Shown piece by piece: positions 4,365-8,772 of a DNA stretch of 64,000 nt. The stretch is taken from the NCBI GenBank assembly GCA_963675755.2, contig CAXXMD010000003.1, forward strand, positions 2,880,001 through 2,944,000, read 5' to 3'. A program made the position numbers and the translations under genes. Positions within the stretch are counted from its first letter, which is position 1, and each line of letters begins with the position of its first letter. The stretch comes from a bacterium (GTDB lineage Bacteria > Zhuqueibacterota > Zhuqueibacteria > Residuimicrobiales > Krinioviventaceae). The notes under the pieces were generated by a model that ran no database searches, was not told where the DNA came from, and saw only the letters and a program-made list of their open reading frames with translations.

Positions 4365-5123
4365 TTAAACTTCGCTTCCGGCCTCCTGCGCCAGTAGTGA
4401 AGCTCCTAATGCACCGGCAAATTGAGGAAGGGCTGGTACAATTATTTCACGATGTAATAATTTTTCAAGTAGTACCCGTATACACGGATTTTTGGCAACT
4501 CCACCCTCAAATACAACCGGGCCATCGCTGCCAATCCGGTTCAACATGCTCACTGCCCGTTTGGCTACGGATTTGTGCAATGCCCATGCAATATCATTTC
4601 GGTTATGTCCTTTTGATATGAGAGAGATAACCTCAGATTCCGCAAACACTGTACACATGCTGTTGATATGAATTTCGGTTTGAGATTCGAGCGCGTGTTC
4701 ACCAAATTCCTGAATATTGAATCCCAGGGTAGATGCCATAATCTCTAAAAATTTGCCGGTACCAGCTGCGCAACGGTCATTCATTTCAAATTTTTTGACC
4801 TTGCCGTTTTCGAACAAAGAGATGACTTTGCAGTCCTGACCACCAATATCCAGAATTATAGATGCATTGGGATAAAGGGCCTTGGCCCCCCGTGCATGGG
4901 CTTTGATTTCGGTAACCGTGGGGCTGTCATACTCGATCTCCATGAGATTACGGCCATAACCGGTAGCCATAATACTATCGTATTTCAATCCATCCAGCAA
5001 TTGCTTTGCCTGGTTAAGCGGATCATATCCCGTATCTGCATGATGGTATTCAAGCAGGTTGCTGTTTTCAGTCAATACAACTTTGATTGTTCTTGAGCCG
5101 ATATCAATCCCGGCACACTTCAT
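4365..5123 (-). CDS. ATP-dependent [4Fe-4S] activase/reductase (HgdC/BadFG ASKHA family; DCCP reductase)
   Basis: GIDIGSRTIK, ATGYGR, TEIKAHARGA, LDIGGQD, MNDRCAAGTGKFLE, INSMCTVFAESEVIS, GGVAKN. Confidence 0.92.
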   Translation of the reverse strand: MKCAGIDIGSRTIKVVLTENSNLLEYHHADTGYDPLNQAKQLLDGLKYDSIMATGYGRNLMEIEYDSPTVTEIKAHARGAKALYPNASIILDIGGQDCKVISLFENGKVKKFEMNDRCAAGTGKFLEIMASTLGFNIQEFGEHALESQTEIHINSMCTVFAESEVISLISKGHNRNDIAWALHKSVAKRAVSMLNRIGSDGPVVFEGGVAKNPCIRVLLEKLLHREIIVPALPQFAGALGASLLAQEAGSEV

Positions 5124-5138
5124 ACTGCCAACTCCTAC

Positions 5139-6416
5139 TTATTTTAACTGCTCTACAAATGCTTCTACGCGGGTTTTTAGCTGACCCACATCTTCCATAC
5201 TATAGTCGGTTTCCACACGTAGCACGGGAACACCGGCATCTTCAAGTTTTTTCTCTACCGGAATGGATTCCATGATATAGGGCTGGCAGAACTGCAAACC
5301 ATAATGGATAACTCCATCGGCATTATAGGCTTTGACCATCTCTTGAATGTGCTGTGTTCGTTCCGAATTGGGGGTAAATATTGCACAATCAACCTTGAAA
5401 TAGCGGTCAATGATGGCATCCATCAACTCATCCATTGATTCGCCCGTGGCATCGGTGAGGTTGCGTGTACCGCGTTCACCCACGCACGATTCTTCACCCA
5501 CAATGACTGCACCAGAAGATTCAACAATCCATGGGAACTTCCAGTTGGGTACTGCCATAGGACAACCGGAGATGAGAATTCGTGGTGTATTTTCCGGGAA
5601 AACGCCCTCTTTGTTGGATATACGTTCGGCCAGTTCGTCACAGATTTTGTTGACAGAGGCGGTAAAGCGTTCAGGATTATCATAAAAGAACACCTGGTTG
5701 GCCAGCAGGGCATCGAGACCTGAAATAGGGGCGGGATTTGCTTTTCTCAATGCAGAAAGACGGTGTATTGCACCGCGTTTTTGGTTTACAATTTGAATAC
5801 CTTTTTTCAGGGATTCCAGAGTTACCTCGTGACCGGTCAGTTCCTGGAGTACCTGCAAGAAACGATAATATTCGGCTTTTAACAGCATGCGCCCCTGCTC
5901 GGATTTAACCTGGGGGATGTCCATTACATACAGATTGTCTACAAGGGTATCAAGCGTTTCATAGGCTTTTTTCTTGCCGTCGCAGGTGTTTTCGCCTACA
6001 ATCATATCCGCGCTTTCCAGGTATGGGCACACTTTGCCCAGTTTGAACCCAAAGGAGGATTTGATCAATGAACAGGTATTACGGGGCAGATACTGTTCAA
6101 CACTTTCTGTGGCAAAATCAGCCCCGGAGCATAAACCTACAAGAGAAGCGTTTGCAGCCAGTACCAGTTCTTCCGGAACAAAAACACAATATGAGCCAAT
6201 AATTTTGCGACCCTGGTCTTTTTCATCCAGTAATTCTTTAATACGCAGTCCATGCACTTCGCTCATAACAAAATCGAAATATTGCATGCCTTGTGGACGG
6301 TTTTTCTGAGAAAGGTAAATATCCCCATAACCCTGGCCCAGTACTTCAAGCAGTGCATCGTGGGCACCCAGGTCCAGTCCGAGATCGGACCACATTTGCT
6401 GATAATTTTCAGACAT
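5139..6416 (-). CDS. Double-cubane-cluster protein (DCCP; 2-hydroxyacyl-CoA dehydratase/HGD-D family anaerobic reductase)
   Basis: Colinear with the recalled Carboxydothermus DCCP: W..L..DL..HD, YFD.V....HG.R, YCVFVPEE, GLC, PRNTC.LIKS, CPY, ENTCDGKKK, EESCVGER, DCAIFTPN, QFCQPY, GQLKTRVEAF. GGAGGA (6427-6422) favours ATG 6416. Confidence 0.88.
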   Translation of the reverse strand: MSENYQQMWSDLGLDLGAHDALLEVLGQGYGDIYLSQKNRPQGMQYFDFVMSEVHGLRIKELLDEKDQGRKIIGSYCVFVPEELVLAANASLVGLCSGADFATESVEQYLPRNTCSLIKSSFGFKLGKVCPYLESADMIVGENTCDGKKKAYETLDTLVDNLYVMDIPQVKSEQGRMLLKAEYYRFLQVLQELTGHEVTLESLKKGIQIVNQKRGAIHRLSALRKANPAPISGLDALLANQVFFYDNPERFTASVNKICDELAERISNKEGVFPENTPRILISGCPMAVPNWKFPWIVESSGAVIVGEESCVGERGTRNLTDATGESMDELMDAIIDRYFKVDCAIFTPNSERTQHIQEMVKAYNADGVIHYGLQFCQPYIMESIPVEKKLEDAGVPVLRVETDYSMEDVGQLKTRVEAFVEQLK

Positions 6417-6420
6417 GTTC

Positions 6421-6481
6421 ATCCTCCAAATGGTGTTGATCGCTTACATCCCCACGCGAACACCTTTATTATTGGAAGGAC
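6421..6481 (-). promoter_or_regulatory. Leader stem-loop sequestering the DCCP Shine-Dalgarno sequence
   Basis: mRNA GUCCUUCCAA (6481-6472) can pair with UUGGAGGAU (6429-6421); inner helices GGUGUU/AACACC and CGC/GCG. Confidence 0.55.
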
Positions 6482-6496
6482 AAACGCACAGGAACG

Positions 6497-6574
6497 TTAC
6501 GAAAATAAACTGAGAAAAGAGCTGACCAGCCCTTTGATCGGTTGTCAATTACATTGATAAAAAAGTAATTTCAT
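6497..6574 (-). CDS. Putative 25-aa selenocysteine-containing leader peptide MKLLFYQCNUQPIKGLVSSFLSLFS
   Basis: ATG 6574 preceded by GGAAAG; in-frame TGA at 6547-6545 in a C-x-U context; frame stays open to TAA 6499-6497; SECIS-like hairpin immediately downstream of the TGA. Confidence 0.55.
6516..6535 (-). promoter_or_regulatory. Bacterial SECIS-like hairpin
   Basis: AAAGGGCU-GGUC-AGCUCUUU: 8-bp stem with one G-U pair, starting 9 nt after UGA. The loop G is the 18th nt after UGA; the GGUC loop core matches the E. coli fdhF SECIS. Confidence 0.6.
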
Positions 6575-6833
6575 AACGCTTTCCGTTTTTCAGAACGTTG
6601 TTGAATAAATTACAGTAAAATTTTTGCATGGAATCTATATTTTTTACAATTAATGCATTTTTTGCACAATATGCAAGTGGAATGTGCTGATTTGCTATGC
6701 AATTTATATTAAATGTATGTTAACAATTGTAAAATGCTCTATGCTGGACGTTATAACCGGGGATATGTCTGTCGCTTTTCATGCCAGCGTAACTAATCGT
6801 TTGTAGCGGACAAAGGGATATGTTTTGTTCTAC

Positions 6834-6870
6834 AAAAAAACCTCCCAAAGCAAATTGCTATGGGAGGTTT
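6834..6870 (-). terminator. Intrinsic terminator after the GHMP kinase operon
   Basis: AAACCTCCCA...TGGGAGGTTT inverted repeat with an A7 run on the plus strand (U-tract on minus). Confidence 0.8.
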
Positions 6871-6913
6871 AAAATCTTATCTTAATAATACTATGTATCC
6901 TAATTCAGACAGT

Positions 6914-7906
6914 CTAGATCTGCGGTTTAATGACCACCGCGCCGATTGTTGCCAATTCTTTTTTCAGTTTTTCAAACATCTGTGGTCCGTCATAGGTACC
7001 CACAATGGCGCCACCACTGCCAGAGAATTTGGCACTGGCCCCAACGGATCGGGCATGTTCTACCATTTCCAGATTCATACGCGAGATGGGGAAAATCTCT
7101 TTACGTTTGTCAAAATTCTGGTTCATAATCTTACCCAGTTTGTCCGGTTCATGGTTGAGCAGGCAATCGCGTGCCTGTTCTGCCATTTCCGCAAAATACT
7201 TCATGGCATCAATTACTTTTTGATCACCAGCCATAAAACGTCCGCGCAGGTTGCCATGTGCAATGCCCGAGATTTCAGCCAGATCGCTGATATATGCCAG
7301 ATAGATAGGCGGAAGCATATTCGGATCGATGTTTTCGTAATTACCGTAACCCTGACTGTCTATCAGTTTTTTATCAAAATCCATGTAAACCAGGTTTTCG
7401 TAAACCTGAACTACGCGATCCTGCAGACCTGCCGAGATTTGCAGTTCGTCTGTTTCTACACTAAGAATAAGGTTGGGAATCAGCGGTTTGGGTATTTCAA
7501 TGCCGTAAAATGTCATTAACGCGCGTATGGTTGCGGTTACAATTGCACTTGATCCGGCAAGTCCCACCTGCACAGGTATGTTTGAGTCGTAGCGGACGGT
7601 AAAATTCTTGTCTGCCAGAACAATACCTTTGCTCTTGCAGTACTCGAAAAACTTTTTAGCCGCTGCTTTGATGAGGCGAATACCGCCGTAATACCCATGA
7701 CGTTGTACGTCTTTGACCAGGTGTTCCAGGTTTTCAAAATATGAATGGTCCCGCTGATTCGGAATGATCTCTATGTCCGGTGTTTCATACAGGGTTACTT
7801 CGGCGAAAAAATCTTTAAATGTTACAGACAGTGTCTTGCCAAAGTATCCGTCTGAAGGATTCCCCGCAAGTCCTGCACGTGTGTATGCTTTTGTTCTTAC
7901 TATCAT
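6914..7906 (-). CDS. GHMP-family sugar kinase, glucuronokinase-like
   Basis: RAGLAGNPSDGYFGKT, IPVQVGLAGSSA, AGLQDRVVQVYE, AKFSGSGGA. Start set at ATG 7906 after AGAGGAA. Confidence 0.8.
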   Translation of the reverse strand: MIVRTKAYTRAGLAGNPSDGYFGKTLSVTFKDFFAEVTLYETPDIEIIPNQRDHSYFENLEHLVKDVQRHGYYGGIRLIKAAAKKFFEYCKSKGIVLADKNFTVRYDSNIPVQVGLAGSSAIVTATIRALMTFYGIEIPKPLIPNLILSVETDELQISAGLQDRVVQVYENLVYMDFDKKLIDSQGYGNYENIDPNMLPPIYLAYISDLAEISGIAHGNLRGRFMAGDQKVIDAMKYFAEMAEQARDCLLNHEPDKLGKIMNQNFDKRKEIFPISRMNLEMVEHARSVGASAKFSGSGGAIVGTYDGPQMFEKLKKELATIGAVVIKPQI

Positions 7907-7926
7907 ATGTTCCTCTCTAATTTTTA

Positions 7927-8772
7927 TTAGAGTTTGGATTGTATCCAATCCCACAATATATCGAGATTTTGCTTCTTTTCAACTTCGTTAAACAATTCAT
8001 GATTTGAAATCGGACAAATATACTGCTTTTTATCCTCAGTTCCAAATAAAGAAAACATTTTTGTGGCGTCATCAATGTTGATGATATTATCATTTTCGCC
8101 CAACATTAATAATATAGGGATATTTACCTGATTTGCGTTTTTATGCACATCCTCAATTACTTCCAGCATGGATAAAAAGAACGAAACGCTTGCCATATCA
8201 TGAACCAGTTCATCTTTTTTGTATTTTTCTACTTCATTGCGATCATGTGAGAGATCGTCAGGATTAATTCCGTTGGGCATGGTAAAAGAGGGAGCGATGT
8301 GGTTCAGCATTTTTGCAAGTGTGTGTTTCCATGCCGGAACCGGTACTTTGATACCAAAAGCAGGAGATGAAAACACCACTCCATTTAATAGATTGTCAGG
8401 GTATTGTAATAAAAAATCCATGGCAATTAGCCCACCCAGACTGTGTCCCAACAATATAGAAGGTTTGTCGTCCCATTTATCCCTTATATATCCGCACATG
8501 GTTTTCATGTCTCTGGCGTATTCATGGAAATGTTTTACATGACCCCGTTTACCACCGGATTTCCCATGGCCCTGGTGATCAAGCGCATACACCGCCATAC
8601 CTTTTGGCAATACAAAATCCAGTATATTGCGGTATCGCCCGGAATGCTCACCAATTCCATGAGCAATAATCAGGTTGCCAATGTGCTCTGTTTCAGGCAG
8701 CCAATATTGATAAAATATCTCAATACCGTCCTGGTTGAGAAATTCCCCGGTAGTATGATTTCTTGTTTTCAT
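7927..8772 (-). CDS. Alpha/beta hydrolase, lysophospholipase/monoglyceride lipase family
   Basis: HGIGEHSGRY, DHQGHGKS, nucleophile elbow GHSLGG, C-terminal HELFNE. Confidence 0.9.
   Translation of the reverse strand: MKTRNHTTGEFLNQDGIEIFYQYWLPETEHIGNLIIAHGIGEHSGRYRNILDFVLPKGMAVYALDHQGHGKSGGKRGHVKHFHEYARDMKTMCGYIRDKWDDKPSILLGHSLGGLIAMDFLLQYPDNLLNGVVFSSPAFGIKVPVPAWKHTLAKMLNHIAPSFTMPNGINPDDLSHDRNEVEKYKKDELVHDMASVSFFLSMLEVIEDVHKNANQVNIPILLMLGENDNIINIDDATKMFSLFGTEDKKQYICPISNHELFNEVEKKQNLDILWDWIQSKL

Follow-up and report, generated by a model that had tools for sequence, protein, structure and literature searches.

The gene for a double-cubane-cluster reductase (DCCP) in the bacterial assembly GCA_963675755.2 is preceded by what is very probably a conserved leader with a short upstream open reading frame (uORF) of the selenocysteine insertion sequence (SECIS) type. 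The analysis covered a stretch of 64,000 nt of this assembly (the window), and the coordinates of leader features refer to its minus strand. The leader occupies about 170 nt (6585-6417), between a GHMP-kinase-like gene (6914-7954) and the 425-aa DCCP gene, whose ATG lies at 6416. We incline, with modest confidence, to the view that it encodes a regulatory leader peptide that decodes selenocysteine (Sec), and that read-through of its UGA codon turns DCCP on. Selenium-responsive translational control was the best reading of the leader because the UGA looks like a Sec codon, the Sec machinery is present, the leader is conserved and covarying, and the operons are linked to selenium. Within this reading, translation of the uORF, decoding of its UGA as Sec, the role of selenium as the ON signal and the step from read-through to exposure of the Shine-Dalgarno (SD) sequence of DCCP are inferred.

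DCCP orthologs were collected from relatives, giving 80 genome-contig loci and 80 metagenome-contig loci (at most 80% identity), and two covariance models of the leader were built, R1 from 5 leaders and R2 from 10. The leader was found in 15 loci from several phyla. These were the window, G001, G022 (L022), G004 (L031), G143 (L184), G116 (L185), L094 and eight others, namely L099, from a metagenome-assembled genome (MAG) labelled Cloacimonadales; L093 and L100, with Spirochaetota and Leptospirales MAG labels; the family f9 genomes G141 (L186), G056 (L192), G121 (L193) and G140 (L194); and L179, seen by motif scan only.

A SECIS-like hairpin in the leader

The uORF has 25 codons (6574-6497) and would encode MKLLFYQCN-U-QPIKGLVSSFLSLFS. 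It starts at ATG 6574-6572, has an in-frame TGA at codon 10 (6547-6545) and ends at TAA 6499-6497. An SD-like GGAAAG (6584-6579) lies 5-10 nt upstream of the ATG, partly paired with UUCC (6494-6491), and by reading of the alignments a purine-rich stretch held the same place in 8 of the first 11 homologs. Directly after the UGA stands the hairpin P2 (6535-6516), formed by AAAGGGCU (6535-6528), the loop GGUC (6527-6524) and AGCUCUUU (6523-6516). Its 8-bp stem had pair probabilities of 0.87-1.00 in ensemble folding, and the loop started exactly 17 nt after the UGA. This hairpin, which does not appear in what an earlier reading of the window, made from its sequence alone (the sequence-only reading), had said of the leader helices, is the most telling part of the leader.

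The bacterial SECIS (bSECIS) model, in the passages of PMC13188914 that set it out, combines an upper stem of 4-16 bp and a 3-9 nt loop with a UGA-to-loop distance of 16-37 nt and a minimum free energy (MFE) of -7.5 kcal/mol or lower. At least one of the first two loop nucleotides is a G, and the next is mostly G or U. The P2 of the window, with an MFE of -7.8 kcal/mol, lay within all of these structural limits. All 14 leaders compared had a loop of 3-5 nt on 4-11 predicted pairs, within the loop and stem limits, and at least one G in the first two loop positions (GGUC, GGUCG, GUC, GUU, CGUG[AC] or AGGAG; the L179 loop was GGUUC). The UGA-to-loop distance was likewise constant at 17 nt in the 14 leaders, or 18 nt where RNAfold closed one extra pair, and in 11 of them the MFE was -7.5 kcal/mol or lower in a 30-nt window chosen by the analyst. 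Within the 6.48-Mb genome, the pattern TGA-N17-GGT[CT] with a stem of at least 6 bp occurred 8 times on both strands, and the leader site was one of two with 8 bp. The same UGA-N17-GGUC layout recurred in a bona fide Sec gene, selD of G116, where 17 nt separate the UGA from a GGUC loop on AGCCC/GGGCU.

The genome that bears the window can decode Sec, since it holds a tRNA-Sec (68.1 bits), SelB, SelA and a SelD with one in-frame TGA. SelB was also found in eight of the nine other leader-bearing genomes, and the exception, G143, is 74% complete. Judged by its sequence context, the uORF UGA looks like a genuine Sec codon.

P2 might instead be a SelB-binding site in an untranslated leader, acting by SelB occupancy without any translation of the uORF. 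There is a precedent in the SECIS-like element before E. coli selAB, which, as characterized in excerpts of PMC13449736, is untranslated and, placed 3 nt from the SD, brings about repression when SelB binds it. As in selAB, a SECIS-type hairpin in the DCCP leader would link Sec-tRNA and SelB status to downstream translation, and the P2 loop has the G[G/U] feature of the SECIS model. Yet SelB binding needs no UGA, spacing or frame, and all three were kept in 14 of 14 leaders; P2, unlike the E. coli element, lies inside a translated-looking uORF behind a correctly spaced UGA, and about 90 nt upstream of the DCCP SD. A SelB site of this kind is very unlikely.

The selD gene of the same genome (C3:1425405-1426334, L188) itself encodes a selenoprotein, with the sequence KCAG-U-ASK, and its best hairpin had the loop (U)GGA(A). 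In two of the leader-bearing genomes, G056 and G140, SelB-wing_3 matched twice, in separate open frames of 640-655 aa, so that each has two SelB paralogs; both carry the CGUG-loop form of the leader.

Architecture and covariation of the leader

Two further helices, P1 and P3, accompany P2. The 5' arm of P1, CGUUAUGAAA (6578-6569), holds the uORF start codon, and it pairs with 6504-6495 in the 3' arm, UUUCGUAACG followed by UUCC (6504-6491), which holds the stop codon. This helix of 10 bp with one G-U pair had been drawn in the sequence-only reading, and it folded with probabilities of 0.54-0.99. The pairs of the GGAA/UUCC extension proposed with it, at the base of P1, were weak (0.04-0.34). 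P3 is a three-tier hairpin (6485-6417), predicted from folding and homolog covariation, that sequesters the DCCP SD. In its outer tier the anti-SD arm GUUUGUCCUUCCAA (6485-6472) pairs with UUGGAGGAUGAAC (6429-6417), leaving U6476 bulged; the middle tier joins GGUGUU (6464-6459) to AACACC (6437-6432), and the inner tier joins UCGC (6459-6456) to GCGA (6443-6440). Each of the SD bases 6427-6423 had an unpaired probability, P(unpaired), of 0.00 in the ensemble for a fold of 6640-6405. A helix that buries the SD and encloses GGUGUU/AACACC had already been recognized from sequence, and its arms, 6481-6472 and 6429-6421, fall inside those given here. The uORF stop (UAA 6499-6497) does lie 15 nt from 6481, as had been described.

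The earlier view held that these helices were mutually exclusive and that a third, upstream segment competed for the ribosome-binding segment of the uORF. AACGUU (6599-6594) is complementary to AGCGUU (6580-6575), but the pair probabilities were 0.00-0.01 and the helix is not predicted to form. By eye, the upstream segment was kept only in the near-identical G001; in G022 a stretch with AACGUU occurs about 45 nt upstream, and none was seen by eye in G004, G143 or L094. P1 and P3 coexisted in the MFE structure and no conserved alternative helix was found, so the idea of mutually exclusive helices did not hold.

The stability of the single sequence was unremarkable, with an MFE z-score of -1.03 for the 241-nt leader and 27 of 200 shuffles folding at least as well. 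In the model-fitted alignment of 14 leaders, 79.4% of cells were paired, compared with 38.8-47.1% when the partners were slid by 1-3 columns. Two-sided changes were seen at 32 of 42 pairs, compared with 14-19 in the slid controls, and none of 500 shuffles reached the observed values. The covariation across homologous leaders anticipated in the sequence-only reading was thus observed. By helix, two-sided changes affected 11 of 14 pairs in P1 (helix 1; 74.2% of cells paired), 7 of 8 in P2 (88.4%) and 13 of 17 in P3 (helices 5 and 6; 80.8% and 81.3%), including 6 of 9 pairs in the SD-pairing helix 5. The consensus consists of P1, which joins the SD and start of the uORF to its end, P2 after the UGA, and the anti-SD hairpin P3.

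Conservation of the reading frame

In all 14 leaders and also in L179, the UGA was preceded at 15-42 nt by an in-frame ATG and followed by 15-24 sense codons. As a control, 42 of 512 TGA triplets (8.2%) taken from upstream of 145 leaderless DCCP loci had both features. The 15 leader loci represent about eight or nine lineages, and this kinship means that simple probability products overstate the contrast.

The uORF peptide was poorly conserved, with a length of 25-36 residues and a varied sequence. The only shared residues were Val and its neighbours after U, which are encoded by the P2 loop and 3' arm. The conserved UUCG of the P1 3' arm fell in different reading frames among the homologs, and the constraint is therefore on the RNA, not on the peptide. 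Selection on RNA and frame rather than on protein, as the alignments suggest, is the signature of a regulatory leader ORF.

The uORF could nevertheless encode a real small selenoprotein of 25-36 aa that works with DCCP, in which case P1 and P3 would be ordinary mRNA structures and nothing would be sensed. The conservation of start, UGA, SECIS and stop in one frame would suit this idea, as would the Cys within three residues of U in the uORFs of the window, L094, L099, L186, L192 and L193. In f9, the two codons before the UGA varied only at third positions (ATT/ATC, ACT/ACC), keeping Ile-Thr in all four members. However, peptide length and sequence varied widely, and the shared residues were just those that come from the P2 loop and 3' arm. 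The Cys was absent in 8 of 14 leaders and the conserved UUCG changed frame. Moreover, the uORF start and stop are locked in a covarying helix, and the stop tracks the anti-SD arm. We therefore regard a functional selenoprotein as decidedly unlikely.

A second in-frame UGA was located 6 nt upstream of the N17-spaced UGA in G022 (L022) and G143 (L184), as UGA AAU UGA, and in L099, as UGA AAA UGA. Both UGAs of these leaders lay within the 16-37 nt range. This U-x-U arrangement in two separate lineages might mean that both codons are read as Sec, a tandem-codon design, or that the first is an inactivating stop.

The leader might also hold an ordinary uORF of 9-13 codons that ends at the UGA, with a hairpin behind it, and senses release factor 2 (RF2) or ribosome traffic without involving Sec. 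UGA is primarily a stop codon, the extra UGA in G022, G143 and L099 would end such a uORF equally well, and the single-sequence fold (z -1.03) is unremarkable. This explanation leaves aside that the frame stays open for 15-24 codons past the UGA in all 15 loci and that the distal stop tracks P1 and P3. It also leaves aside that the loop and spacing match both the SECIS model and the G116 selD, and that the operons are linked to selenium. It is the least probable of the explanations weighed here, and very improbable in itself.

The DCCP operon and its links to selenium

The DCCP gene (5139-6416, minus strand, ATG 6416) encodes a 425-aa protein of the HGD-D family (PF06050, E 9.8e-120). It matched NF040772 ("double-cubane-cluster-containing anaerobic reductase") with 469 bits against a cut-off of 350. 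It is adjoined on the same strand by the gene of an activase ATPase of the BcrAD/BadFG family (4365-5123; PF01869, E 3.2e-54; TIGR00241, 229 bits against a cut-off of 125.4). This NF040772 match above the cut-off and the adjoining activase gene justify the name DCCP. The protein has seven Cys residues at 77, 96, 115, 145, 311, 344 and 377, with spacings of 18, 18, 29, 165, 32 and 32. The seven-Cys motif given in portions of bioRxiv 10.1101/2022.07.06.499078 is CX19CX18-19CX29CX166-170CX32-34CX32C, and its literal regular expression misses the window DCCP by one residue at two gaps. The DCCP gene of the window has no in-frame UGA, and its 425-aa frame is open.

Several leader-headed operons contain a gene for YedE. 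Leader, DCCP, activase and YedE follow in this order in G121 and G140, and leader, DCCP and YedE in G143, whereas in G141, on a 3,284-base contig stretch, the leader stands directly before YedE. These YedE genes matched TIGR04112 ("YedE family putative selenium transporter") with 485-495 bits against a cut-off of 200. N-terminal YedE fragments were seen after DCCP in G022 and, in G056, where the contig breaks off about 3 kb downstream of the leader; the G056 fragment scored 36 bits, below the cut-off. The gene that comes after the activase in both L099 and L100 encodes a class-V aminotransferase, whose best matches were TIGR01977 (cysteine desulfurase) and the selenocysteine lyase SclA; both genes are fragments at the locus end with scores below the cut-offs. 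The window operon has no YedE, and the genome gave no TIGR04112 match above the cut-off.

A yedE gene was also seen beside leaderless DCCP orthologs (in L089 it lies upstream and is co-directional, in L062 it is divergent), so the link between DCCP and YedE is wider than the leader family. Published data also link double-cubane proteins to selenium. The text of bioRxiv 10.1101/2022.07.06.499078, as far as its excerpts go, places 955 of 970 NF040772 double-cubane proteins in SelD-containing assemblies, and raises either a role in processing selenium compounds or a selenium-bridged cluster for these proteins. A STRING table in PMC5322559, from the parts of that paper considered, links an HGD-type subunit and activase with YedE, YedF and DUF3343. 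The operons headed by the leader are thus linked to selenium.

Proposed mechanism of selenium-responsive control

In the proposed mechanism, a ribosome would start the 25-codon uORF and reach the UGA at codon 10, where P2 behind the UGA would act as a bacterial SECIS and recruit SelB with Sec-tRNA(Sec). When selenium is replete, Sec would be inserted, and the ribosome would pass the P1 3' arm to the distal stop at or near the anti-SD arm of P3. This passage would help to expose the DCCP SD and keep transcription and translation coupled, and the operon would be expressed. When Sec-tRNA(Sec) is short, RF2 would end the uORF at the UGA, P3 would keep the DCCP SD buried and the operon would be off. 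P1 might then reclose over the uORF start once the ribosomes are gone, locking the off state. Loss of coupling between transcription and translation after release at the UGA would offer a second route with the same polarity. In E. coli, the selenium level sets the balance between UGA recoding and RF2 termination, according to the abstract of PMC4513850.

The layout of several leaders fits this scheme. The uORF stop lay 0-10 nt from the anti-SD core in 9 of 14 leaders, and 0-2 nt from it in six. With a 30-nt footprint masked at the uORF stop, the mean P(unpaired) of the SD was 0.42-0.80 in L031, L094, L099, L100 and L185. In these folding models the arrangement resembles coupling by arrival, in which selenium would turn the operon on.

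The same Sec-decoding uORF might work with the opposite polarity, so that read-through shuts the operon and termination or pausing at the UGA turns it on, in a homeostatic loop like those of trp and his. The gene content fits acquisition, YedE being a putative transporter and one gene being SclA-like, and classical attenuators are ON when the charged tRNA is scarce. Read-through in the window copy, besides, does not open the SD on paper. However, there is no conserved anti-anti-SD helix that a ribosome paused at the UGA could favour, and masking at the UGA left the SD closed in 13 of 14 leaders, with L093 reaching 0.36. The six leaders in which the uORF stop abuts the anti-SD core have the layout of coupling by arrival, not of repression. 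We consider the reversed polarity unlikely.

Several findings weigh against control by read-through as proposed here. In the window copy the uORF stop lies 17 nt from the anti-SD core, and the distance is 15-20 nt in the window, G001, G022, G143 and L093. Masking a ribosome at the uORF AUG, UGA or UAA left the SD of the window paired, and its mean P(unpaired) was 0.07 in all four states. Direct melting of P3 by ribosome occupancy thus fails on paper in the window copy, and in G001, G022, G143 and L093 as well. RNAalifold with the P1 5' arm removed gave no conserved alternative (anti-anti-SD) helix. The refolding by which the sequence-only reading had explained its selenium-responsive switch was therefore unsupported, while the Sec-type UGA, the conserved covarying leader and the selenium-linked operons speak for the switch itself. 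That interpretation appears partly supported, being right in spirit about a selenium-linked, Sec-decoding leader and wrong in the switching mechanism. The polarity of control is not settled; for an uptake and recycling operon, activation by selenium shortage would be the more natural arrangement. If the extra UGA of G022, G143 and L099 were read as a stop, it would keep the Sec codon from being reached and would kill the model for these three leaders.

The f9 leaders raise a separate difficulty. In L186, L192, L193 and L194 the SD and AUG of the leader open a three-codon ORF, ATG TCT CCG TAA, and an AT-rich inverted-repeat element of about 265 nt follows before DCCP, which has its own SD. Any control in this family therefore cannot be simple unmasking of the DCCP SD.

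The evidence for the Sec codon and for the leader structure also has points against it. P2 was weaker than -7.5 kcal/mol in 3 of 14 leaders (L031, -5.5; L192, -6.0; L194, -6.0 kcal/mol). The selD hairpin of the window genome lies about 37-38 nt after its UGA, unlike the leader spacing; with the N17 spacing of the G116 selD, both SECIS layouts therefore occur in the class. SelB is near-universal in the class (110 of 125 genomes, or 108 of 123 without the unpublished G151 and G118), and its presence was for this reason rejected as a discriminator of leader genomes. The alignment of 14 leaders was fitted to the model; the three helices had already come out of a MAFFT-only alignment of 5 sequences, in which 11 of 42 pairs were compensatory. 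Rfam covariance models found no SECIS family in 6000-7100 at E values up to 10. The control at the Sec-containing selD locus of the same genome gave no SECIS either, so the miss at the leader says little. The best Rfam match of the leader was STnc630, with 19.5 bits against a gathering score of 55, and the other sub-threshold matches fell mostly on the upstream terminator; in the scan of 6000-7100 the leader belonged to no Rfam family.

Comparison with known systems

In trpL and hisL attenuation and in translational attenuation of the ermC type, the position of a ribosome on a leader ORF selects the downstream signal. The DCCP leader is similar in having a short leader ORF whose decoding is tied to one charged tRNA, and in that ribosome position would decide the effect of the SD hairpin. 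As in trpL, tandem regulatory codons (U-x-U) are carried by two lineages of the leader. In contrast to these systems, the sensed codon is a stop whose recoding depends on a cis hairpin, SelB and Sec-tRNA(Sec), and failure would take the form of termination by RF2, not of stalling. The leader also differs from them in that no pair of alternative helices was found in it and no terminator-like site in 6300-7000. Unlike those of trpL and hisL, the controlled genes are not a biosynthetic pathway of the sensed amino acid.

Autoregulation of prfB, the gene of RF2, works through an early in-frame UGA with a +1 frameshift within prfB. In both cases an early in-frame UGA would gauge the availability of a translation factor; the DCCP leader has no +1 frameshift and would use a SECIS, SelB and a separate leader ORF.

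The fdhFSec gene of Treponema primitia shows selenium control through uncoupling of translation and transcription at the Sec codon, in excerpts of PMC3892789, which also describe trp attenuation. There, as proposed for the leader, selenium is read at a UGA with its SECIS, and failed Sec insertion lowers downstream expression on the same mRNA. The UGA of fdhFSec lies in the selenoenzyme gene, whereas that of the leader lies in a dedicated, non-conserved mini-ORF combined with an SD-sequestering hairpin. P2 resembles the bSECIS of selenoprotein genes, as modelled in the part of PMC13188914 cited above, in loop size, G position, the 16-37 nt spacing and stem length. It differs from them in that its host ORF has 25-36 codons without conserved protein sequence, and its SECIS function is predicted.

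No Sec-decoding leader, uORF or attenuator was described in the open-access literature searched; a search of the same literature for DCCP and selenocysteine likewise found no such leader described. We hold it evenly balanced whether the leader is the first natural "selenium attenuator", that is, a leader peptide that solely tests UGA-to-Sec decoding and gates a DCCP and activase operon, with YedE or Sec-lyase-like genes in some lineages. If it is, bacteria would measure their selenium status through the recoding machinery itself, and selenium metabolism would be the field of action of the double-cubane reductase, whose substrate would be a selenium compound or whose cluster would contain selenium. 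The tandem U-x-U codons of two lineages would then play the part of the tandem Trp codons of trpL.

The bacterial selenium regulatory network is not fully understood, in the words of a section of PMC5322559. The statistical association of double-cubane proteins with selenium in the excerpted bioRxiv 10.1101/2022.07.06.499078 would gain independent support of a mechanistic kind from the leader, which directs the search for the physiological substrate of DCCP toward selenium chemistry. A cis gauge that combines a UGA and a SECIS with two SD-masking helices would form a compact sensor, with possible use as a selenium-responsive element in synthetic biology. Regulatory Sec codons of this kind would escape gene callers and selenoprotein finders that disregard very short ORFs.

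Distribution of the leader

The covariance-model search gave one match in the window genome, at the leader locus only. Seven of 151 genomes matched in the phylum sample, and 10 of 125 in the class sample. One match in the phylum sample, in G096, was taken as false, since it scored 24.6 bits and lay inside unrelated sequence. The leader was lacking in 72 of the 80 genome-contig DCCP loci; the others were six R1 matches and, by eye, L100 and, doubtfully, L096. Among the metagenome loci a first motif pass gave 10 loose matches, including L179; a relaxed scan, run on L179 alone among these 80 loci, then showed it to hold a full instance. L096, L097, L098 and L179 gave no match to R2 at E <= 0.01. 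A DNA search in 60 relatives found a full-length leader match only in G001, and the other matches covered 29-65 nt.

In a FastTree phylogeny of 165 DCCP proteins, all 13 leader-bearing proteins that were included fell in one bipartition of 16 tips (support 0.78). The other three tips were L096, L097 and L098, and L179 joined at the next node. The leader is thus tied to a single DCCP subclade.

L096 has a TGA some 155 nt before DCCP, and 17 nt beyond it a UGGAAU loop closed by a stem of 5 bp, with the only in-frame ATGs about 100 nt upstream; this may be a decayed or divergent copy of the leader. Eight loci without the leader (L029, L030, L033, L034, L042, L110, L122 and L129) have an AT-rich, operator-like stretch, ATAATAAATATGAATTTGCTTAATAG with its neighbours, about 100-170 nt upstream of DCCP, which suggests that protein-based control replaces the RNA leader in this clade. 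In L061 and L084 the DCCP match spans 1620 and 1508 nt, compared with about 1275 nt, which suggests an insertion within the gene. Within f9, G140 has a further copy of the inverted-repeat element after the activase gene; the placement of the leader directly before yedE in G141 probably arose by deletion of DCCP and activase between repeat copies.

Upstream region of the leader

A terminator-like hairpin and a U run (about 6868-6835) close the GHMP-kinase gene upstream, and the leader therefore probably has its own promoter. A sigma-70-like site (6733-6706, minus strand), TTTACA and TAATAT separated by 16 nt, was the sole promoter hint and came from a consensus scan only, with 9 of 12 matches. 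Between this site and the uORF lies an inverted repeat, TTGCA-N5-TGCAA (6662-6676, minus strand), which differs by one change in the G001 copy and could be a candidate operator for a transcription factor.

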